A stretch of DNA of 33,932 nucleotides. It comes from Wickerhamiella versatilis. Lineage: Eukaryota. Shown piece by piece: positions 1 to 33,932 of the stretch. Position 1 is the first letter of the stretch. Every line of letters begins with the position of its first letter. The DNA lies in assembly GCA_030867685.1 (NCBI GenBank), contig JAQOWU010000002.1, forward strand, positions 1-33,932, written 5' to 3'. The translations under genes were made by a program, and so were the position numbers. The notes under the pieces were generated by a model. It was not told the DNA's origin. It saw nothing but the letters and a program-made list of their open reading frames with translations, and did not search any database.

Positions 1-1673
1 TAATAAATATAAAATCTGAATGTTTATTTTATTTAATCTAAGAATGTTTATTAATTCAATATTTCTGTTCAGACCATTGGCGATAAGGTTTATGGTCGAG
101 AGGGAAACAACCCAGAACAAAATTAAAGTTCCTAATATAATAATAATAAGAAATAAGATAATTTTTTTAATAATTCAATCAGTTTGTAGGTTTGACAGTA
201 ACTATCTTATTAATAAAAGTGTAACAACTTACTGATTCATATCAAAGATATGAATCAATATATATTTTAATAAATATATATGATTCATAATTTTTAATTA
301 AAAGAATATCGATAATTTATCGGACTTAAATTATTAAACTGATATTTTGTAATAGAATTATAATAATATAATATCTATTGGTAATTGCATAATCAATGAA
401 ATAAATATTAAAATAACTAAAAATTTTAATATAATAATTATATTATATAATTATATTAAATTGATAAAAGAATGTTTACATGAGTAACGAAAATAAAGTT
501 AAAATCTTTATCATTATCACATAAGGTATAATAAAATACAATATTTAAGTAATAGATGAAAATTATTATTATAATAATAAAAATATATTAACTAAAAATG
601 AATTATTAGATAATAAATAAAGAAATTATATATTATAATATATAATTTTGTAAACCTAATAATTACCAGAAAAAGGGTTAATAAAGAATTGTAATATATA
701 CCGACACAGGTGTGATGAACTATAAAAAAGTAAAGATGAATGAGCGAATTATATATAATGAACTCGGCAAAAATACTCAAAATGTTGATTAAGAGTAAAA
801 AATAAAATAGCACGACTGTCTACTAAAAACAAAGCACTATGCAAAAATGTAAATTATAGTATATAGTGTGAAAACTGCCCCATGTTAAATGCTAAATTTA
901 AATATGAAAGTATTTAATATAATATTTAATAAATGGCCGTCTTATTCTGAGGACGATAAAGTAGCGAAATTCCTTGTCAAGTAATTATTGACCTGCATGA
1001 ATGGTTAAACGATGTTATAACTGTATCATATATAAGCTCAGTGAAATTGGAGTAGTAGTGAAGATACTATTTATTAGTGGTTAGACATGAAGACCCTAGC
1101 ATCTTAACTATATGTTGAAAATTGTAAAATTATATTTATTTTATATTACATTTTTAATGATATTTAATATTTATAATATTACTAACCATTAATTATATTT
1201 AATATTAAATTAATTAATAATAATTAATTTATTTTTTTTATTATTAATTTTAATAATTATATTAAATAATTGGGACAGTTACAACATGATAGTTTGACTG
1301 GGACGGTAGGATTAGAAAAAGTATCTAATCTGTCTATTAGATAAATTAATAAATTATTAAAAATATATATTATATTAATATATAAATAATATAAATATAC
1401 CATATATTTATTATATGGTTAAATAATAAACAAGAATAAGATATCATTAACTTAGGGGAACAACTAAGATCTATAAAAAATGTAGATTAATAAAGTATAA
1501 TAATATAATGATATTAAAATAATGAGACTTACAAGTCAAAATAGTATTTACGTATAGTATAATGAACAACTATTGATGAAGTTAATCATAGTGATAACGA
1601 GTAAGATACGCTAGGGATAACAGCCTAATATTGTGTGAGAGTTCATATCGTAAACAATGATTGGGACCTCGAT

Positions 1674-2039
1674 AAATTAATTAGCCATGATGTCGAGGAT
1701 AAATTGGGTGAATTGCAAGAAAATCTAAGGTTTAATTAAACTATGATAACTTGCAGCGAAGTTTTATCTATACAATAATTAATAATTATTAATTATAAGG
1801 ATAATAAACGTTCAACGACTAATGATTGAGTAGTATAACAATAATATCAACAAGAGCGCCCAACAATTAATAATATTATTATTAATTGATGACATAGTCT
1901 GAACAATTTAATAAAATAATATTAATTATTTTATTAATATATAGTAATTATATATATATATTATAATATAAATTTACTATATAATGGAAACATATTGAGA
2001 TTAAGTATTAAATGTACTTAATATAAACATATAAAATTG
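1674..2039 (+). mobile_element. Group I intron (IA-like), no ORF, at E. coli-equivalent L2504
   Basis: Interrupts CCTCGAT^GTCGGC and ends in G. IGS GTCGAGG pairs with exon CCTCGAT. Core motifs TCAACGACTA and GACATAGTC. Confidence 0.9.
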
Positions 2040-2120
2040 GTCGGCTCAACCTATCCTCCAGGATGCAAAATATTGGAAGGGTATGACTGTTCGTCATATA
2101 AAAGGTTACGTGAGCTGGGT

Positions 2121-3723
2121 TAAATTAAAAAATATTATAAATTTACAAATCTGTCTTGTCAATATAATATTGCTCACGTTAATAAAATTAATCTTAGCCC
2201 ATTAAAATTGTGAAATTTTAATTAAATTTGGCTGAAAACGGTGAAGACTAAGTACTAAATGTAATATTAATATTACATTTTATTATATGTTAATACCGTG
2301 GTACTTCAAATAATAATTTAATAAATTATTATTGTGAACACTGTAACGACTTAAAATATTTTATAATATTTTAGACTTAATAGACATAAATAAAATAATT
2401 ATTCTATTTATGATATCTAGTTATGTAATAAGGCCAATATCTTATAAATTAATTAATTAATAAAAAAAATAAATATATATATTAAAAAGGTAAATCATAA
2501 AGAAATGATTAAAAATAATAAAAATAAAATGAAAAACAATAATAATAAAATAAATTTAAATCCTTATTATATATCAGGATTAGTACAAAGTGATGGTAAT
2601 TTTAGTGTTAGAACTAATAAAAAAGATAATAATATTTGATTATTACCAGCATTTAATATAACATTACATAAAAAGAATGAAGAATTAATAATAAATATTA
2701 AAAATTATTTTAATGTTGGACATTATCGTATAGATAATAAAGGTTATTGTAGATATAATGTAACAGATTTAAAAGATTTAAATAATATTATTATACCATT
2801 CTTTTTAAAATATCAATTAAAAAGTGAAAAATTTAATAGTTTTATTATGTTTAAAATTATATGTAATAAATTAAATAATAAAGAACATTTAAATTTAATT
2901 AAAAATAAGAATATTAAATATAATAAATTAATTAAGGATAATAATCCTAATTTAATATTTACTAGTAAATTTAAAGGATCATTAAGTAATATAAGGTTTA
3001 ATATTATTAAATTATATTTAATAAATTTAGCTTATAATATTAATCCATTATCAAATAATCGTAAATTAAAATCAAGAGAAAATTTATTAAAATTTTTAAA
3101 TAAAGATGAACGTTTAATAGTATTATCTAAAGATTTAAATTATGAATTATTAATTAAACAAGAAATTATTAAATATAAAAATAATGATAAGATTAATATT
3201 GATTTTATTAAAGGATTAATAGATGGTGATGGTAGTATAACTACATATATTACTAATGAATTATCATTAAGAGTAGATTTTTCAATAACTCAAGATATAC
3301 ATAATATTTCATTATTATATGAAATTAAAGAATTTTTTAATAATGTAGGTAATATATCAGATTTAAAATGTAATGCATTTAGATATGATATAAGAAGTAG
3401 ATATGATATTCTTAATGAATTTATACCTAAATTTAATAATAATTATTCAAATGGTATAAATAATAATGTAAGATTATTTAAAATAAAATATATGATTAAA
3501 TTATTAGAATTTATTAATAATAATAATTCTTCAATAATTAAAAATAAAGAACAATTAATTAAAGTATCTAAATTAATGTATTGAATATTTAATAATGTTA
3601 ATAATTTAACATTAAATCAATATATTAATTTTATGTTAAATAAATTTAAAAATAAAATTAATTAATTTAATTTATAAGATAAAGCTATAGTCTAAGTAAT
3701 ATCGAAAGATATTTTGAAACTTA
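2121..3723 (+). mobile_element. Group I intron at E. coli-equivalent L2584 with a LAGLIDADG ORF
   Basis: Interrupts GCTGGGT^TAAGAACGTC. IGS TCTTAGCCCA at 2192-2201. Core motifs TAACGACT and CTATAGTC. Boundaries were set by the IGS pairing. Confidence 0.85.
2505..3665 (+). CDS. Double-motif LAGLIDADG homing endonuclease, free-standing in the rnl intron (about 386 aa)
   Basis: With TGA=Trp the frame runs ATG2505 to TAA3665. Motifs YISGLVQSDG and FIKGLIDGDG. Confidence 0.9.
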
Positions 3724-4083
3724 TAAGAACGTCGACAAGACAGTTCGGATAATATCTGCCACTAATTACTGAAAAAGGTAACCTCTCATTTAGTACGAAA
3801 GGATTAATGAGACATTATCACTGATGAATTTTTGATATCATAAAAATATTATATTTTTATGTTGTGAAAATTAGTTAAATAATGAAATTTTTAAGAAATA
3901 CTTATAGCATATCAAGTATGAAATAGTTTATCTTATTCAGTTTAAAAACTTATTAGATTAATAAGTATAAATAAATATATTAAATATATTTATTATTATA
4001 TTCGGTTAATTATTTAAATTAATAAATTAATTTCGAATTATTTTCTTATTTTATTATCTCTTATTTTATTATTAATATTATAA

Positions 4084-4155
4084 GCTGATTTAGCTTAATT
4101 GGTAAAGCAATCGTTTTGTAATCGATAGTTAGTGATTCGAGTTCACTACTCAGCA
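4084..4155 (+). tRNA. trnT: tRNA-Thr(UGU)
   Basis: Cloverleaf, anticodon loop TT-TGT-AA. Confidence 0.9.
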
Positions 4156-4225
4156 TTGCATTATAAATAATACTAAGTAATATAAATATACTCAGCATCA
4201 TTAATTAATTTATATTAAAAAATAA

Positions 4226-4313
4226 GAACATATGACTGAGTGGTTTAAGGTGGAACACTTGAGTTGTTTTATTCCATATTTTGGAATCACAAGTTCGAAT
4301 CTTGTTATGTTCG
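4226..4313 (+). tRNA. trnS: tRNA-Ser(UGA)
   Basis: Cloverleaf with long variable arm, loop CT-TGA-GT. Confidence 0.92.
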
Positions 4314-4335
4314 ATTTATAAATAATATATATATA

Positions 4336-4561
4336 TTATATTTATATAATAAAGTCATTAATTATAATATTCATATATTATTACAGAAAATATAATACAT
4401 TAAATATATATATTTAATGTATATTGAAATAAAAAAATATATATTATTAATTATAATAATTAATAATATAATAAAATATTATATATATAAGAATTATATA
4501 TTATATATTATATAGTTTTTAGAGGTAAAATTTATATAAAATAATGCTTATTTAAATATAA
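4336..4561 (+). ncRNA. rnpB: Probable RNase P RNA
   Basis: P4 halves AAAGTCA (4351) and ATAAAATAATGCTTAT (about 4536-4551). Internal ACAGAAA (4383) and TGAAA (about 4425) motifs. Terminal P1 TTATATTTA/TAAATATAA. Lies between tRNA genes. Confidence 0.7.
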
Positions 4562-4589
4562 TTAAATATATATTATTTATAATTATATA

Positions 4590-4663
4590 CTGATTGTAGT
4601 AGAATTGGTATATACATTAAATTTAGGATTTAAATTTTATGGGTTCAAATCCCATCAATCAGA
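4590..4663 (+). tRNA. trnL: tRNA with UAG anticodon, probably Leu, short variable loop
   Basis: Acceptor CTGATTG/CAATCAG, discriminator A, 7-nt loop TT-TAG-GA. Confidence 0.8.
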
Positions 4664-4725
4664 TAAGATAATCAAATTAATCAAATGATATGATTTTTTT
4701 TTATATAAAATAATTAATAAACTAA

Positions 4726-4796
4726 GCACTCATAGTTTAATGGTAAAACATTAATCCACGAAATTAATGATATAAGTTCAACTCTTATTGGGTGTG
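4726..4796 (+). tRNA. trnR: tRNA-Arg(ACG)
   Basis: Cloverleaf, loop CC-ACG-AA. Confidence 0.88.
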
Positions 4797-4817
4797 ATTA
4801 TTTTATTTAATTAAGAT

Positions 4818-4889
4818 AAGAGTATAGTATAACGGTTATTATTTGCGACTTCAAATCGTGAGATAGGGGTTCAATTCCTCTTGCTCTTG
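4818..4889 (+). tRNA. trnW: tRNA-Trp(UCA)
   Basis: Loop CT-TCA-AA, consistent with TGA=Trp. Confidence 0.92.
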
Positions 4890-4970
4890 TTAATAATATT
4901 TATATAAATAAATATTATTATATAAAGTAAAGTTTAAAAGTAAATAATAATAATAATTAAATAAATTTAT

Positions 4971-5041
4971 GATCTTATAGTTAAATGGTATAACGTTAGA
5001 TCTTCATTCTAAAAGTGTAGGTTCAATTCCTACTAAGATTA
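4971..5041 (+). tRNA. trnE: tRNA-Glu(UUC)
   Basis: Cloverleaf, loop TC-TTC-AT. Confidence 0.9.
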
Positions 5042-5051
5042 TAAATTATAT

Positions 5052-5124
5052 CGCAATATAGTGTAATTGGTAAACATATAAGATTCATGATCTTATGCTA
5101 CAAGTTCAAATCTTGTTATTGCAA
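5052..5124 (+). tRNA. trnM: tRNA-fMet(CAU), initiator
   Basis: CAT anticodon, C1-A72 mismatch, resembles the yeast mitochondrial initiator (GCAATA...TATTGC). Confidence 0.88.
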
Positions 5125-5148
5125 TTAAAATTTAAATTAAAATTAAAT

Positions 5149-5220
5149 AGAATGATAGCTTAACGGTTAAAGCCAACCACTCATAATGGTTTGATCAGAG
5201 TTCGATTCTCTGTCGTTCTA
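5149..5220 (+). tRNA. tRNA(CAU), probably Ile (AUA-reading), otherwise Met
   Basis: Loop CT-CAT-AA. It is the third CAU tRNA besides the initiator-like and elongator-like ones, and ATA is used at Ile positions. Confidence 0.8.
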
Positions 5221-5283
5221 TAAAACCTCATATTAACATTTAATATTAAATAAATTAATATAAATATTTAATAAATATTAACT

Positions 5284-5341
5284 ACGACGAGGGAATCAAG
5301 AACTCAATACTAAAGTATTAGTTCGATTCTCTGTCGTTCTA
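5284..5341 (+). repeat. Fold-back unit derived from the tRNA(CAU) 3' end
   Basis: AGTTCGATTCTCTGTCGTTCTA is duplicated and preceded by ACGACGAGGGAATCAAGAACT. Confidence 0.9.
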
Positions 5342-5353
5342 TCTATTAATTAA

Positions 5354-5362
5354 ATATAAGTA
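5354..5362 (+). promoter_or_regulatory. Promoter ATATAAGTA upstream of trnL-Q-K-P-V
   Basis: Exact consensus match. Confidence 0.55.
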
Positions 5363-5399
5363 GTAATTATTATAATATATATATGCATAATTATTATAA

Positions 5400-5481
5400 A
5401 TCAATCTGGTGAAATTGGTAGACACGTTATAGTTAAGTTATAATGCTTTTATGCATGAAGGTTCAAATCCTTCGATTGATA
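5400..5481 (+). tRNA. trnL: tRNA-Leu(UAA)
   Basis: Loop GT-TAA-GT, long variable arm. Confidence 0.92.
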
Positions 5482-5587
5482 TTTTTTTAATTATAAAATA
5501 AATAGATATATAATTTATCTATATATATTTTTTATCTTATATTATTCTTTTTTAATAAATATTGGACTATAATCCAATATTACATAT

Positions 5588-5662
5588 TAGATTGTAGACT
5601 AATTTGGCAAGTCAGTTTAAATTTGAGTTAAGATGATGTAAGTTCGAACCTTACCAATCTAA
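5588..5662 (+). tRNA. trnQ: tRNA-Gln(UUG)
   Basis: Acceptor TAGATTG/CAATCTA, loop AT-TTG-AG. Confidence 0.85.
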
Positions 5663-5724
5663 AATATATAATCTAATATAAATAAATAAATATTTATATA
5701 ATATATAAAAGGATTTATATATAG

Positions 5725-5796
5725 GAGTATATAGTTTAACGGTTAGAACATCTACCTTTTAAGTAGATTATATGAGTTCAATTCTCATTATACTCA
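5725..5796 (+). tRNA. trnK: tRNA-Lys(UUU)
   Basis: Loop CT-TTT-AA. Confidence 0.92.
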
Positions 5797-5859
5797 ATAT
5801 TCCTTTCTTAGGGAAATATTCTTTAATATAGTAATATTAACTAATAATAGATATTAATT

Positions 5860-6013
5860 AGTATAATGGAGAATGAACTTACCCTTGGGTCGTTCAATTC
5901 TCATTATACTCAATAAAAGAAACAATAAATAATAATTATTATAATAGTAATATTATTTATTTCAAATAACTAGTATAATGGAGAATTAACTTAATTCAAT
6001 TTTCATTATATTA
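5860..6013 (+). repeat. Two tRNA-Lys-derived fold-back units (5860-5912, 5972-6013)
   Basis: GTTCAATTCTCATTATACTCA is identical to the trnK 3' end and is preceded by its near reverse complement. Confidence 0.9.
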
Positions 6014-8424: not shown

Positions 8425-9420
8425 TTAAAAATGACATAAAGAAACATTAATATTATATTTACCATTTTTATTAATAATATATGATTGTGATTTAGTTAAA
8501 TTAGCTGAATAATTATTTAATTTAAAATTTCTAATAGGATTATAATTTTTTAAAATTAAAGGATTAATATTTAATTTACCATTATTATTATAATATCTTA
8601 ATGCTCTAGCATTACTTTCTGAATTATAATTTTTACCTCTAAATTTTCAATCATATCCAATAATATATTTATATAATAAATTATTATTAATAATTAAATC
8701 TTTATTATAAAAATATAATGGTTTTTCATTAATATAATATTTATTATGATTATTATTTGATAATAAATAATCTATTTTATTCATTATTGATATTGTATTT
8801 AATTTATCTGATATAAAATAATTTAATCATGGTGTACTATTATTATTAACTTTAATATTATTTATTTTATCAAATTTAGGATATTTAGATATAAATTTAC
8901 TTAATGATTTACTATAAATATTACTATCTAAATAATCATATTTTAATATTATTGGTTTAATTTCTAAATTTATATCATTTATTTTATTTATTTTTAATAT
9001 ATTATCTATAATTTTAGATATAAATATATTATTATATTTATTTAATGGATTATATATAAATAATATTATTTTTATAGTATTATTATTAAATAATAATATA
9101 GGTTCTCTATATAATATATTTATATATTTATTATTATTAGTATTAGGTAATTTAATAATTTGATTTAATATATAACTTATATATCTATTTATTAAATGTT
9201 TATTATTTAATTTATTTAATAAATTATTATTATTAAAATTATATATTATTTGTGAATAATCTCATTTATTATTATAATTATTTAATGATAATTTATTAAA
9301 ATTATTATTATTATTATTTAATAATCTCATTTCATTTATTTTATTATTATTTAAATGTTTAATTAATTTATATATTATATTATTAATATATATCTTTCTA
9401 ATATTATTATTAATTTTCAT
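8425..9420 (-). CDS. rps3: Ribosomal protein S3/Var1 (331 aa)
   Basis: Asn/Ile/Lys-rich frame ATG9420 to TAA8425 with NKWDYSQIIYNFN, LYKYIIGYDWKFRGK and a C-terminal INKNGKYNINVSLCHF typical of Var1. Confidence 0.9.
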
Positions 9421-14347: not shown

Positions 14348-18506
<4,159 letters not shown>

Positions 18507-23503: not shown

Positions 23504-26500
23504 TTAACGTTTTATAGCTAAATAGAATAAAACATTTTCTAATATTGAAACTGCTGGTAATAATACAATAAAGTAACCAAAATAGAAGTAAGTACATAAG
23601 CTACCTACTGTAATAAATGGTGGTTCAATATGTACAGCACCTAAAACAGCTAATAATAAGAAATTAACTACAAAGAATCCAAATAATAATTTAGATAATA
23701 CTTTAAATGCATTACCTCTAATTATAGAGAAATCTACAAAAGGTAATAATAATAATACTAATATAGAAGCTAACATAGCTAATACACCTAATATTTTTGA
23801 TTCAATATATCTTAATATAGCATAGAATGGTAATAAATAGAACTCTGGTACTCAATTTATATTAATCAAAATGTTTCCATTTTGTTTAGACTATGTCATA
23901 TAAATAATAAATTTAATTATTATTTATAAGGGCACTTCACCTAATTAAATTATTAATTAGATTACGAGATATTATTATTGGTATTAATTCAATCTCTAGT
24001 CGTTGAACGTTTTTATATCATTATTATATATATATTAATTATATAATAAATTTAATCTATTATAATAAATTAAATATACCGATATAAACTTCGCTGCAAG
24101 TTATCATAGTTTAATTAATAATTAATTAAACCTTAGATTTTCTTGTCAATTCACCCTTTTTTCATATTATATATTATATAATATGCCACATTATTAATTA
24201 TATGGCAGCAGGAGTTACTAAAGGATTACCAGGTATATTATTTTCAGGATCACCTAAATATTCTGGATAATAACTAATTAAGAAGAAGTATATAAATAAG
24301 AATGCAAATATTGTTATTGTATCTTTAAATAAATAATAAGGATGCATTGGTATTCTATCAATATTAGCTGTTATACCTAATGGATTATTACTTCCATGTG
24401 TATGTAATGCTAATATATGCATACAACTTACAGCAGCAATTATAAATGGTAATAAATAATGTAAACTGAAGAAACGTTGTATTGTAGGATTAGATACTGA
24501 TGATCCTCCTCATATAACAATTATATTATCAAAGAATTCATTTAAAATTCTTTATCAAAATGTTTCCATTTTGTTTAGACTATGTCATCAACCAATAATA
24601 AAATAATTTATTTTATTATTAATTGTTGGGCACTCGTGTCAAGATTATTGTTGATACTACTCACTTGTTAGTCGTTGAACATTCTTATTACAAAAATTAA
24701 ATAATTATTTAATTTTATATCGTAATAAGCTTTGCTGCAAATTATCATAATTAAATAATTAATTATTTAATCTTAGATTTTCTTGCAATTCACCCAATTA
24801 TTTCAATAATTATCATATTTATTTAATATTAATAAATATTTTAATTAAAGGAGCTCTTTAATTTGAGGATTTAATTAAATTAAATTGAACTCTGCTAATG
24901 GTTTACCTAAATATGGTATTGTAGTTACTAAATTTGTAATAACTGTTGCCTATTAATAAAAGTCCTTAATATTTAATTATTAAAAATAGGAATATAATTA
25001 AAATTATATCATTAGGATTTTTAATTAAATATAAGTTTAGTTTTTAATTAAACTAAATAATTTATCCAAAAATAATAATTATTATTATTTTTAAATTATA
25101 TTAAATTTAATATTTAATATAATCTGGTAAAATAAATTATACCATGTACCAAATATATGTATTAATATATATTATAAAATTTGGCCTTGTGAATATATTA
25201 TATATAAATCCATAAATTTATATAATATATCTTTATTTCGAGTGCACATTAAACATCATTTCAGACATCCATTATTGATCCACTCTGTCGGGATAATATA
25301 ATTTACCCACGGCTCTCATTATTTACCAAATAATTTTGACCAGTTTTCAATAATGTTGCATTATAAATATCAAATATATATAGATATTATATTTGTTAAT
25401 TTATTTTTAATTATATATTGCATAAATTAATTATTTATAATACTATATAATATTATTAATATTAAAAATTAGGATTTAATTTAGTAATTAATTTATATTT
25501 CATTGAAGGATGAATATAAGGTTTTACTATATTTATTAAATTACTCATAGAATTAGTATTAAAATATAAATTATATTGGTTTTTATATCCAGATTTAATA
25601 ATTGAAACATCTAAATTATATTTATTTTTTAATATATTTATTAATATTAAATGTTCATTATAATTAAAATTATTAGATGCTATTTTTAATCCATTATTTA
25701 ATTTACCTCCATCATCCATAATTCATATAGCTAATGCTAATGGAGTTAAATATATATCAATATCATTAGGTAAAATCTTTTTTTTATTAATATATCATTT
25801 ATCATAAATTGGATTAAATATATCATAAGTTCAAGTTGAAAATCTTATTATTTTTCTTAATTTTCCTTTATTACCTAAACGTGTTTGTATTTTAGGTATA
25901 TTAGAATTACAATAACCTAAATTACTAATTAATTTATGTAAATATAATAGATAATCTTCATGACTACCTTCTTGATAAAATGAAAATCTTGTACCTGTTC
26001 CATTTTTACGTTTTTCACCATGACAATCACCTAATAATGATCCATAAATTATTGATAATAAATCAATATGTAATGGTCCAAAATTTAATAATTCATTTTT
26101 ATTAATACGTTTATTTTTTATTTTATTTTTATTTAATTCTAAATTTAATAATATTAATAATATTACATTTGAGGCGCACAATTCACCTCAGTGTGACATT
26201 TGCCCATAAACAAGACAATACTAATTTTTATATTAAATAAATATAATTATTTATTTAATTTTCGACTGTGCATTAAACATCATTTCAGATATCCATTAGT
26301 GTTCCAGTCTGTCGCGATTATTTATGTAACCGACGATCTTGTTAATAATTTAATAATTATTAATTTTAATCGTTTTCACTAATGTTGCCATCATATAAAT
26401 TTAATTTATATGATAATAATATATAAAATATTATTTATCAATCCATAATTATTTCTCATAAAAGTTATCTAATTATAGTATATTATATATAATAATATAA

Positions 26501-28003
26501 TGATAGACTATCAAATTATAAATATTTATTAAATTAAATAATAAATTATATTCTATAAATATTTTATTTATTATATGAAATAATAAATTTAGTTTTATCT
26601 TTAGTTAATAATAAACCAGATTTTAATGGTTTAATCATTTTAATCTTAATATTAGATATATCTTTAACAGAATTATATTCTAATATATTATTATTATTTA
26701 GATATTCTATAAATAATTTAGGTATATAAATATAACCTTTATTAATTGATCTTTTAATAGTTTTAGTACTACAACATAAATAATTAGCTGCTTTACTAAT
26801 ACTATAAAATTCACATATATATTTATTATTTTCATCAAATAAATATATAGGTTTACCAAATAATTTAGCTATTTTAATTCTACCAGCTCTTGAAATATAA
26901 TCTTTACTACGATTAAGAGCTATTTCTCTTAATTTATGTTTAGATTCTTCACTTCATTTACCCTTACGATTAATTTGTAATTGTCTTAATAATTCACGTC
27001 TTTCATCTGTAAAAGCTATTTTCATTTTATTTAAACTTTCTTCATTATGCTTATAACCTAATGTATTACCTGCTTCAGGTACTATATTATATTTAGGCAT
27101 TAATAAACTAATATAAGATGTTTCTAAATTTAATAATTCTTGATTAATTTTTTTATCATATTTATTATTATATTCATGATTATTTATATATTCTAATATA
27201 CCAAAAATAAAATTATTTAATCCATATTTTTTAATAGATCTAGCTACTAATTTATTACCATTTAAATGATATAAATGATTACTAAATCTTGTATATAATC
27301 TATTATATATTGCTGAACCTATATAATAATTTTTAGTTATTTTATTAATTATAATATATATTCCTGATTTATTTCTTAATTTTTCACGAATTTCTACTCT
27401 AACTGGTTCTTTATCAACATTATCTCATCAATTTTCTATATTAACTTTACCTAATATATCATTAATTATTTGTTGAGAATCAGTTAAATCTTGAGGTTTA
27501 TTATTATTATTTTTTAATAAAAATGAAGATGATGAAAATAATCTTTTATTTAATAATTTATTATTTAATTTAATATATTTATAATTTGATTTTGGGCTAT
27601 TGTTTTGTTTACCCATAAATGCAGTAATTATCATTAATAAGAATATTACTACTCCTATTGTTCATAATGCTACTCTTGGTTTTCTATATGATCCATAATA
27701 TATACCTCTAGCCATATGTAAATATACAAATATAAAGAAGAATCCAGCTCCATTAGAATGTGCATATCTTATTAATCATCCATAATGCACATCAATCATA
27801 ATGTGTTGAACAGATAAGAATGCTAAATCTAAGTTAGAACTATAATGCATTGCTAAAAATATACCTGTAGCTAATTGTATTACTAAACATGTACCTAATA
27901 AACTACCAAAATTTCAGAAATAACTAATATTTGCTGGTTCTGGTGCATCTATAACAAAACTATTAGGTATTGATAAAAATTCATTAGATTTTCTTAATGC
28001 CAT
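23504..28003 (-). CDS. cob: Apocytochrome b (384 aa); exons 28003-27611, 26220-26185, 24949-24889, 24517-24202, 23852-23504
   Basis: [18 protein letters not shown]^[12 protein letters not shown]^[28 protein letters not shown]. Exons sum to 1155 nt. Confidence 0.97.
23853..24201 (-). mobile_element. Group I intron cob-806 (IA-like), no ORF
   Basis: Interrupts GCC AT^A GTA CCA and ends in G. IGS GTGGCA pairs with exon TGCCAT. Confidence 0.9.
24518..24888 (-). mobile_element. Group I intron cob-490 (IA-like), no ORF
   Basis: Interrupts GAG T^TT ATA TGA and ends in G. Core TCAACGACTA and GACATAGTC. Confidence 0.9.
24950..26184 (-). mobile_element. Group I intron cob-429 (ID-like, bI2 position)
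   Basis: Interrupts TGA GGT^GCA ACA and ends in G. Core near 25240-25360. Confidence 0.92.
25462..26184 (-). CDS. LAGLIDADG (type 2, bI2-like) maturase/endonuclease, in frame with cob exon 2
   Basis: [10 protein letters not shown] and LAIWIMDDG motifs. Confidence 0.92.
26221..27610 (-). mobile_element. Group I intron cob-393 (ID-like)
   Basis: Follows GGT at CDS nt 393 and ends in G. Core near 26260-26390 (CGACAGACTGG). Confidence 0.92.
26564..27610 (-). CDS. GIY-YIG homing endonuclease, in frame with cob exon 1
   Basis: [20 protein letters not shown]...RF..H, followed by [21 protein letters not shown] and other NUMOD-like segments. Stop position read by eye. Confidence 0.9.
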
Positions 28004-33226: not shown

Positions 33227-33932
33227 ATATTAATAATAAAATATGAAATGAATAATAAAATAAATTAAAGATATAATTGAGGATTATAAGATTAAATATT
33301 GATAATGAAGGTATAAAATATATTAAACCAATATAAATATTGGTGATAGATATATGAGACCTAAATAGGAAACTATATATTTAAGAACGTAGTGAACTGA
33401 AACATCATAGTAACTATAGGAAAGGAAAATAAAACAAGAATATTAAGAGTAGTGGTGAACGAAATTAATAGAGTCTAAGAGTAAAATGTGTAAAAATGTT
33501 TTAATATAGTAAAACTAATACTAAGACTAAATACAATATTTAAATCATAAGTACTGTGAAGGAACATATGAATCAGTTAATATCGATAGCATAGCTAATT
33601 ATATATATATATAATTATCTAGTACCTTTTGTATAATGGGTGAACAAGTTTAATATAATAGCAAGATTAATAATAAAATTTAATCATATAAGAAATTAAT
33701 AAAGAAATATTCAATAATTATTTATTGAATATTAGTTAGTTATTATATTAAGACCCGATAGCTTGTGATCTTACCATGATCAAGTATAAAATGACTGAAC
33801 GGGTTAATGTTGCAATATTATCCGATGAATTGTGGTATGCGGAGAAAGTTAAATCGAACAAGCAGGTAGCTGGTTTGCAATGAAACATATTTTCGTATGA
33901 TAGAAATAATTAATTATAAACGGTATAGCACT
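33226..33932 (+). rRNA. rnl: Large subunit rRNA, 5' part (continues across the circular junction into position 1)
   Basis: Conserved LSU motifs GAACGTAGTGAACTGAAACATC, AGTACTGTGAAGGAA, GTACCTTTTGTATAATGGG, AGACCCGA, GTAGCTGGTT. 5' end is approximate, placed at the TTATAAGTA promoter. Confidence 0.9.

Follow-up and report, generated by a model that had tools for sequence, protein, structure and literature searches.

A group IA intron at L2584 of a yeast mitochondrial rnl gene with a predicted terminal A and P1-loop blocks complementary to both exons

The terminal G of group I introns is among their very few near-invariant nucleotides, and it serves as substrate when the second step of splicing takes place. 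The sole exception that we found in the open-access literature, as far as the accessible parts of the sources go, is the hexacoral ND5-717 intron, whose last nucleotide is A and whose exons are still perfectly ligated in vivo (PMC8146996, PMC6545197). A first-pass annotation of the DNA studied here had already pointed to this hexacoral nad5 precedent, and the available text of both papers bears it out. ND5-717 resembles the intron described below in its terminal A and its large P8 insertion, but differs from it in its animal nad5 host gene, in being obligatory and vertically inherited, and in having no endonuclease gene; in their accessible parts, the papers describe no exon-complementary insertion in its P1 loop (PMC8146996, PMC6545197).

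Three other systems are informative for comparison. Mitochondrial LSU rRNA genes of Cryptococcus neoformans and C. gattii carry introns with the same site name, mL2584, which are classed as IA1 (PMC5808193); the intron studied here likewise has an IA layout. Compared by description, these introns are unlike ours in being 241-252 nt long and in having no endonuclease gene, and the portion of the paper text available to us does not mention their last nucleotide ("terminal G" occurs 0 times). Engineered trans-splicing ribozymes provide the second comparison. According to the accessible part of PMC6155759, the 3' splice site is set by P10 and P9.0, a P10 of ~6 bp makes the choice of this site more specific, and antisense "extended guide sequences" open structured targets and raise ribozyme efficiency. 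The exon-complementary blocks reported below are similar to such guides in the antisense duplex that they could form beside P1/P10, with an internal loop between. Engineered guides, however, are artificial, occupy the 5' end of the ribozyme, act in trans and serve one splice-site side only (PMC6155759, as far as accessible), whereas the blocks are natural, lie in the P1 loop of a cis-splicing intron and are complementary to both exons. The third comparison is with two L2584 introns in 23S genes of Patescibacteria (CPR) genome bins, L148 and L135. They share with our intron the insertion after GGGT, a covarying P3, a P9.0 (in L148) and a homologous core (AACGG[T/A]GAAG, CCGTGGGAAG, GTA[A/T][A/C]GACT and GGTATAGTC), but end in G and have a 9-nt P1 loop and a 3-bp P10; L148 has no ORF. 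We found no report in the open-access literature of a fungal group I intron ending in A or of exon-antisense blocks in a P1 loop.

The whole stretch of DNA that we analysed, hereafter the window, comprises 33,932 bases without N; all features below lie on its + strand. Judging from its sequence, the segment at 2121-3723 (1603 nt) is a complete group IA intron, inserted after E. coli U2584 in the mitochondrial rnl gene of a Saccharomycotina yeast. This placement, possibly close to Dipodascales, comes from cox2, for which the named proteins of highest identity were those of Blastobotrys adeninivorans (73%) and of Diddensiella and Magnusiomyces (67%); a search with cox1 brought up endonuclease fusions only. 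The assignment is based on covariation of the core helices with the same-site introns L004, L005 and L006, which together with L003 were found on metagenome contigs, and with L148 and L135, and on an alignment of the 3' ends. We take the site to be L2584, directly after the first U of GGGUUU in E. coli numbering, as cross-checked against A2602, U2609 and C2611; the first-pass annotation had named the same site. The upstream exon, between introns 1 and 2 of rnl (2039-2120), ends in ...ACGTGAGCTGGGT, with T2120 equivalent to E. coli U2584, and contains the 3' strand of H90. The Rfam model LSU_rRNA_eukarya matches positions 2040-2138 with 58 bits.

The internal guide sequence (IGS), TCTTAGCCCA (2192-2201), spans the splice junction with its pairings, as had been proposed. 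Its 3' half, GCCCA (2197-2201), pairs with the exon strand TGGGT (2116-2120) to form P1, including a U.G pair at the 5' splice site (T2120.G2197), and its 5' half (2192-2196) pairs with the 3' exon at 3724-3728 to form a P10 of 5 bp. P1 and P10 are contiguous, and both are formed by the IGS. The layout of P1, with U.G at the splice site, is the same in L005, L006, L148 and L135, and the IGS lies directly 5' of P2 in the window as it does in L005 and L006. P2 itself is a hairpin with a GTGA loop (2202-2221; the L005 equivalent is AACATGT-GTGA-ACATGTT).

The conserved group I core was located in full. P3 pairs TTGGC (2228-2232) with GCCAA (2433-2437) and occurs in four sequence types including that of the window (TTGAC/GTCAA in L006, CTGAC/GTCAG in L005, TCGAC/GTCGA in L148). 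P4, with ACGGT (2238-2242) opposite ACCGT (2295-2299), encloses P5 (2238-2299). P7 joins GACT (2348-2351) to AGTC (3689-3692) and is identical to that of L005; its guanosine-binding G-C pair is unchanged, and we rejected an altered guanosine pocket for this reason. P7.1 (2352-2360/2365-2373) and P7.2 (2385-2392/2405-2412) occupy 2352-2412, between P7 and the 3' strand of P3, an arrangement that Michel and Westhof reportedly gave in 1990 as the criterion for subgroup IA. P8 is a perfect 14-bp helix (2439-2452 with 3667-3680, its exact reverse complement) which closes a loop that bears an ORF. In J7/9, AAG (3694-3696) pairs with CTT (3720-3722) as P9.0, and P9 is the hairpin AATATC-GAAA-GATATT (3698-3713). 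The core thus has covarying P3, P4, P7, P7.1, P7.2 and P9.0, besides P8 and P9. The Rfam model RF00028 (Intron_gpI) gave only a partial match (3680-3712, overlapping P9) of 16.2 bits, and its gathering score of 50 was not reached, likely because of the 1.2-kb ORF in P8 and the IA-type core. Against the same model, intron 1 of rnl (1675-2038), which ends in G, scored 70.4 bits.

The ORF in the P8 loop (2505-3665; 386 aa with TGA read as Trp) is predicted to encode a double-motif LAGLIDADG homing endonuclease or maturase. Pfam PF00961 matches it in two stretches (E = 4.4e-29), and its translation contains the two acidic motifs GLVQSDG and GLIDGDG, as predicted from the sequence. Five homologues (P0002-P0006) are 42-51% identical to the window's endonuclease at 89-97% query coverage; identity to the endonucleases of L003-L006 is 30-35%. 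By its insertion point, core and endonuclease homology, the intron belongs to an L2584 IA lineage of fungal mitochondria and CPR bacteria.

GCTGGGT|TAAATT is the sequence around the 5' splice site, and GAAACTTA|TAAGAACG that around the 3' splice site. Four registers yield the identical ligated sequence, GGGTTAAGAACG; in these, the last intron base is A3723, T3724, A3725 or A3726. A terminal G occurs in none of them, and only the register 2120|2121 places the U.G pair T2120.G2197 at the 5' splice site. As its final nucleotide, the intron has A3723, and not the G that is a feature of group I introns. We treat a terminal G as near-universal in these introns and its absence as no bar to membership, since ND5-717 is counted among group I introns although it deviates in the same way (PMC8146996, in the text available).

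The alignment of other L2584 introns that the first-pass annotation had suggested shows a covarying core and a last base (omega) of A in two of five introns (the window and L003, in the same column) and of G in three (L005, L148 and L135). An invariant T comes next in all five. P9.0 adjoins the last base in four of the five, each time with a different sequence (GA/TC in L003, GG/CC in L005, GTA/TAC in L148), and L135 has no clear P9.0. P10 measures 5 bp in the window, compared with 3 bp in the G-ending relatives.

The start of the 3' exon (3724-3746) consists of the P10 strand TAAGA and of H93, which reads GAACGTC-GACAA-GAC-A-GTTC at 3727-3746 (hairpin -6.7 kcal/mol). H93 covaries between the window (GAAC/GTTC) and L003 (ATAC/GTAT), and G3727 therefore belongs to the exon. 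Two intron-less alleles, L190 and L192, read GAGCTGGGT|TAAATACGTCG; they fix the exon start for L003 and L005, and their length equals that of the window's predicted ligated sequence. We infer that the intron is spliced at 2120/3724, giving the predicted junction GCTGGGT|TAAGAACG (also written GCTGGGT|TAAGAACGTCG; GCTGGGTTAAGAACGTCG). Two other candidate 3' splice sites, G3727 and G3716, were rejected because their use would delete or insert bases of the peptidyl-transferase loop and break H93. The first-pass annotation had claimed both that no register combines a 5' exon U with a terminal G and that the intron seems to end in A, at 3723. The four registers agree with the former, and the homologous introns, the covariation of P9.0 and the intron-less alleles of a related lineage with the latter. 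The DNA of L003 and L005 is 78-84% identical, yet their last bases differ; this pair, together with the window's endonuclease being only 30-35% identical to theirs, implies at least two origins of the terminal A.

The 5' splice site is separated from the IGS by a P1-loop (L1) insertion of 71 nt (2121-2191). The equivalent stretch measures 6-9 nt in relatives (TAATAA in L005, TAAGTAT in L006, AAGTGAATA in L148 and AAGGATTCA in L135), and the insertion is absent from all four relatives whose 5' end is known; the 5' end of the A-ending L003 is missing. RNAfold and a check of the pairs predict a hairpin at 2131-2171, with a stem of nine A-U pairs (2131-2139/2163-2171) and a 23-nt loop. This loop bears the first of two exon-complementary blocks, guide 3 (CTGTCTTGTC, 2151-2160), which is complementary over 10 bp to the 3' exon at +11..+20 (3734-3743; 23.6 bits, duplex -14.4 kcal/mol). 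Its target is the loop and 3' strand of H93, and it matches the lineage-specific 5-nt H93 loop GACAA. The second block, guide 5 (GCTCACGT, 2172-2179), is complementary over 8 bp to the 5' exon at -13..-6 (21.0 bits, duplex -12.2 kcal/mol); its target, ACGTGAGC (2108-2115), overlaps the 3' strand of H90, whose pairing we took from the Rfam consensus structure. Both blocks and the IGS lie where the first-pass annotation had put them, with the complementarities that it had described, and each of the three sequences occurs once in the window.

We searched 80 nt of flanking exon against both strands of the whole window, scoring matches by base composition. Seven non-self exon complements reached 19 bits, and the two guides were the top two. 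They lie 11 nt apart within the 71-nt L1, where ~0.007 such matches would be expected from the window-wide rate and two were seen. Inverted repeats of at least 20 bits whose arms lie no more than 2.5 kb apart are frequent in the window, which has 110 of them, so it is location, not strength, that sets the guides apart. When the P1 loop was aligned locally to the ligated exons in reverse complement, the score of 38 was unremarkable (500 shuffles gave 26.9 +/- 4.1, with a maximum of 43). The two guide blocks are real and non-random. Among the introns compared, they were found in the window's intron only, and rnl intron 1 (1675-2038) has no exon-complementary blocks like them. We also considered L1 as a copy of a repeated mobile mini-element and rejected this, as copies in the window do not exceed 13 nt and the matches up to that length consist of A and T only.

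In the minimum-energy fold with the full H90 context, H90 and P1 form and guide 5 is unpaired. Forcing guide 3 to pair costs 4.4 kcal/mol in the nested model (-32.7 vs -37.1), and neither guide pairing is favoured by nested energy models. Each of the two guides, if paired together with P1, makes a pseudoknot that would have to fit the ribozyme core.

From the complementarities, and as the first-pass annotation had inferred, the two blocks may be auxiliary guides that position the 3' splice site and unfold rRNA helices. That this is a mobile group IA intron in which base pairing instead of a terminal G sets the 3' splice site, and in which the guides act in splicing, seems to us an evenly balanced proposition. 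The first step would look canonical, with the IGS strand GCCCA on the exon's UGGGU, U2584.G2197 at the 5' splice site and the P7 guanosine pocket unchanged. With A3723 as the last base, the usual binding of a terminal G in P7 cannot hold the 3' splice site. In the second step, the site would instead be set by pairing, namely by the 3-bp P9.0 just before A3723, the 5-bp P10 and the 10-bp duplex of guide 3 with the 3' exon, while guide 5 (8 bp at exon -13..-6) would hold the cleaved 5' exon through a slow second step. Both guides would in addition compete with H90 and H93, which may otherwise sequester the splice-site sequences, and the intron's own LAGLIDADG protein or a host factor would likely help. 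A bolder version, which we put forward tentatively and hold to be rather doubtful, is that terminal-G recognition has been replaced by a three-part, pairing-only 3' site, and that L1 is a built-in "extended guide" which clamps both exons (8 + 10 bp around the 10-nt IGS), holds the cleaved 5' exon, melts H90 and H93 and so enables ligation after a terminal A.

The terminal A could also be real and the blocks irrelevant to splicing. They could be a by-product, namely an inverted copy of ~33 nt of the intron-less target (-13..+20) in the P1 loop, possibly left by double-strand-break repair after cleavage by the homing endonuclease, with the central 15 nt later replaced; this would also rid the intron of an internal target for its own endonuclease. 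We consider this origin possible, though on the unlikely side. In reverse complement, the ligated exons show the same order as the blocks, anti(+20..+11) followed by anti(-6..-13), with a gap of 15 nt where the blocks have 11. This colinearity speaks for one copying event rather than for functional selection. The absence of the insertion from the four relatives with known 5' ends (6-9 nt there) and the nested energy models that do not favour the guide pairings fit such an event as well, and L003, whose own 5' end is missing, shows that a terminal A is possible in this intron family. Yet both blocks are perfect and have abrupt edges, while their surroundings and the spacer are unrelated to the exons; neutral decay predicts otherwise unless the event was very recent. 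The predicted fold also leaves both accessible, the one within a hairpin loop and the other single-stranded, and once transcribed they would probably have some effect through their duplexes with the adjacent exons (-14.4 and -12.2 kcal/mol).

Two further explanations concern the 3' end itself. Splicing at 2120/3724 may not be precise, whether because another 3' site such as G3727 is used or because the second step fails and the rRNA consists of two unligated pieces held in the ribosome. In the Tetrahymena intron, replacement of the terminal G is reported to block exon ligation in vitro, which speaks for such a failure. We nevertheless find it quite improbable, as the peptidyl-transferase loop would lose UAAG if G3727 were used, and H93 its G3727-C3746 pair, which covaries with L003; the intron-less alleles have the same length, and the genome's intact respiratory genes need a working mitoribosome. 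Moreover, the A-ending ND5-717 ligates its exons in vivo (PMC6545197, as far as accessible). It is also conceivable that A3723 stems from faulty base calling or assembly, or belongs to a rare allele, and that the functional intron ends in G. The base rests on one assembly, and the terminal G is called universally conserved in the accessible text of PMC8146996. However, an independent relative, L003, has A in the same column, and 14 DNA runs hold at least 95% of the words sampled from window positions 1-6000, a sample that may not include 3723. Were the last base G, it would be a strange accident that P10 measures 5 bp here but 3 bp in the relatives ending in G. An error or rare allele at 3723 strikes us as highly improbable.

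If the terminal A is as predicted, these fungal mitochondrial rRNA introns would form a second, independent A-ending family, and one with close G-ending relatives. L003 and L005 would constitute a matched natural pair for studying ligation without a terminal G, and, since A has at least two origins in this lineage, L2584 may be a natural laboratory for the escape of ribozymes from terminal-G dependence. Should the guides have a part in splicing, they would be nature's equivalent of the extended guide sequences with which trans-splicing ribozymes have been engineered, and would reveal how an intron deals with exons as strongly structured as those of rRNA. Should they be inactive in splicing, they would nonetheless bear witness to something unusual, the copying of the homing site into the intron in inverted orientation.

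Collection-wide pattern scans were also performed. There were 0 matches each to the ligated junction, to two patterns from the 3' exon of the window's lineage and to the L003 clade's S-P9 pattern; thus, no intron-less allele or close relative of the window's own lineage was found in these scans. The P4 motif matched 33 stretches, none with the exon motif beside an intron core, and a loose P1/IGS pattern matched 117 stretches of viral contigs, with no rnl intron among those inspected. As for sequencing runs, the share of sampled words of window positions 1-6000 was at least 0.95 in 14 DNA runs and 0.05-0.25 in six RNA runs.

The window appears to represent an entire mitochondrial genome, circular and cut open within rnl. 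It is very AT-rich (18.6% G+C), contains genes for complexes I, III, IV, and V that are read with TGA as Trp, and has the 5' portion of the LSU rRNA at its end and the remainder at its start (rnl, 33355–33932, then 1 to ~3900). Its cox2 protein is nearest, among named sequences, to those of Saccharomycotina yeasts (Blastobotrys adeninivorans, 73%; Diddensiella and Magnusiomyces, 67%). Two group I introns interrupt rnl, at 1675–2038 (intron 1) and 2121–3723 (intron 2).

Intron 2 is a complete group IA ribozyme. Its helices are P1 (2116–2120 with 2197–2201), P2 (2202–2221, GTGA loop), P3 (TTGGC 2228–2232 with GCCAA 2433–2437), P4 (2238–2242 with 2295–2299), P7 (GACT 2348–2351 with AGTC 3689–3692), P7.1 and P7.2 between P7 and P3' (2352–2373 and 2385–2412), P8 (14 bp, 2439–2452 with 3667–3680), P9 (3698–3713, GAAA loop), P9.0 (AAG 3694–3696 with CTT 3720–3722), and P10 (TCTTA 2192–2196 with TAAGA 3724–3728). 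The P8 loop holds a double-motif LAGLIDADG gene of 386 codons (2505–3665; Pfam E = 4.4e-29), unlike the Cryptococcus mL2584 introns, which passages of one study describe as IA1 introns without an endonuclease gene (PMC5808193). The first-pass annotation had named the site L2584 and placed three motifs near the 5' end: the internal guide sequence (IGS, 2192–2201), a segment complementary to 3' exon 3734–3743 (guide 3, 2151–2160), and one complementary to 5' exon 2108–2115 (guide 5, 2172–2179). All three are where it put them, each unique in the window, and the name is right: in E. coli numbering, checked against A2602, U2609, and C2611, U2584 precedes the intron.

Collection searches with the protein alignment recovered this intron, at an identical site, both in metagenome contigs (four: L003, L004, L005, and L006) and in the 23S genes of two Patescibacteria (CPR) bins (L148, complete and ORF-less, and L135). 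The cores align well with that of the window, and the covariation that the first-pass annotation suggested seeking is present in P3 (TTGGC/GCCAA in the window, TTGAC/GTCAA in L006, CTGAC/GTCAG in L005, TCGAC/GTCGA in L148). The nearest endonuclease homologues (P0002–P0006) are full-length and 42–51% identical. L003, L004, and L005 form one clade (78–84% DNA identity), and the window endonuclease is only 30–35% identical to those of this clade. The sequence collections scanned yielded neither a close relative of the window's own lineage nor an intron-less allele of it.

Four alternative registers would yield an identical ligated product, with the intron ending in A3723, T3724, A3725, or A3726. 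None has a terminal G, and only the register cutting between 2120 and 2121 sets a U.G pair at the 5' splice site. In this register, exon GCTGGGT meets intron TAAATT... at the 5' junction, and ...GAAACTTA meets TAAGAACG at the 3' junction. The exon start is independently fixed by four lines of evidence. In L190 and L192, two alleles of the L003/L005 lineage that have no intron, GAGCTGGGT runs directly into TAAATACGTCGTGAGACAGTATGG, and bacterial intron-less genes read GGGT followed by TCAGA(A/C)CGTCG, with the same length. Helix H93 covaries (GAAC/GTTC in the window versus ATAC/GTAT in L003), and G3727 is therefore an exon base. Finally, P9.0 lies directly before the last intron base in four of five introns, with a different sequence in each (AAG/CTT, GA/TC, GG/CC, and GTA/TAC); no clear P9.0 was seen in L135. 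In the five aligned 3' ends, the invariant exon T is preceded by A in the window and L003 and by G in L005, L148, and L135, which upholds the proposed terminal A. Since the last base varies within the L003–L005 clade, from which the window endonuclease is so distant, either A arose on two or more occasions or G was regained. The DNA very probably has A at 3723, and splicing probably joins 2120 to 3724, producing the predicted junction. The window and L005 share the same P7, with the G-C pair of the guanosine pocket, and the pocket shows no compensating change. P10 is 5 bp in the window versus 3 bp in L005, L148, and L135, as read from their sequences.

The distance between the 5' splice site and the IGS is 6 nt in L005, 7 in L006, and 9 in both L148 and L135, versus 71 in the window, where the IGS-P2 unit is nonetheless conserved. 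This P1 loop insertion (2121–2191) carries both guides. When both strands of the whole genome were scanned for complements to 80 nt of exon flank, only seven non-self matches reached 19 bits, and the top two were the guide blocks (23.6 and 21.0 bits), 11 nt apart; from the genome-wide rate, a 71-nt stretch should hold about 0.007 such matches. In intron 1, nothing of this kind was seen outside its own IGS region. Guide 3 targets H93, pairing with its 3' strand and with its loop, an unusual, lineage-specific 5-nt GACAA (3734–3738); in the other sequences compared this loop has 4 nt (GTGA in L003, L190, L192, and several bacteria; GTAA in L148). The exon bases facing guide 5 belong to the 3' strand of H90 in the Rfam consensus structure. 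The predicted fold extends P1 into the intron. It places guide 3 in a 23-nt loop closed by nine A-U pairs and leaves guide 5 single-stranded directly after this hairpin. The guide 3 duplex is predicted at −14.4 kcal/mol and that of guide 5 at −12.2, compared with −6.1 for P1, −1.6 for P10, and −6.7 for the H93 hairpin.

Very probably, then, the guide blocks are not a product of chance, but several observations count against a function. Inverted repeats of guide strength are common, with 110 in the window between any two places within 2.5 kb, and a plain alignment of the P1 loop to the reverse complement of the ligated exons scores 38, within the range of shuffles (26.9 ± 4.1, maximum 43). When all of H90 is included, the minimum-energy structure contains both H90 and P1 but has guide 5 unpaired, and forcing guide 3 to pair costs 4.4 kcal/mol in a nested model; either guide together with P1 makes a pseudoknot, as does P1 with P10. 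The order of the two blocks also matches this reverse complement, except that 11 nt stand in for the central 15, which suggests that they derive from one copying event. The link between terminal A and guides is a single case because the 5' end of L003, the other A-ending intron, is missing from its contig. We regard a role of the guides in splicing as possible, though somewhat less likely than not.

In the most likely mechanism, step 1 is canonical, with exogenous G attacking at U2584.G2197. In step 2, the terminal A cannot use the guanosine pocket normally, and the 3' splice site is presumably aligned by three pairings instead: P9.0, the lengthened P10, and the duplex with guide 3. The role of guide 5 would be to retain the released 5' exon, otherwise tethered after step 1 by only the 5 bp of P1, and the two guides together would prevent H90 and H93 from closing. 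A protein probably assists. [quoted passage not shown] In the open-access literature, where omega is not a searchable term, we found no report of a fungal group I intron ending in A, nor of an exon-antisense insertion in the P1 loop.

In L189 and L191, a different, unrelated intron that ends in G occupies the L2584 site (781–2000 in the analysed orientation, with an ORF; core motifs AATTGCAAGA, TTTGCAGCGAAG, GTTCAACGACTA, and ACATAGTCTGAA). These two contigs agree at 1400 of 1400 bases. At least two intron families have thus invaded the site. L189–L192 are fungal-type mitochondrial contigs filed in a viral collection, with L190 and L192 intron-less at L2584. The CPR 23S introns with a core homologous to the fungal mitochondrial L2584 intron lie within 5445–5718 of L148 and 2705–3540 of L135. 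Other CPR introns (L136 and L137, with L150 similar) follow GACCGT at the L2593 site, and L135 carries an intron at each of the two sites, which are separated by only 9 nt.

Elsewhere in the window, intron 1 is ORF-less (Rfam Intron_gpI, 70.4 bits), ends in G, and is inserted after ...GGGACCTCGAT, near E. coli 2500. GAGGATA (1695–1701), adjoining its IGS, is complementary to 3' exon 2052–2058 (15.5 bits), which could reflect chance or a distal exon pairing. Both cox1 and cob (14351–18506 and 23507–28003, minus strand) have several introns, whose ORFs contain LAGLIDADG_1, LAGLIDADG_2, and NUMOD1 domains and are in some cases fused in frame to the upstream exon; an Rfam group I match lies at 24556–24818 (minus strand). 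An asparagine-rich ORF of 331 codons (8428–9420, minus strand), with no Pfam match at E ≤ 1e-5, may encode a divergent, rps3/var1-like ribosomal protein.
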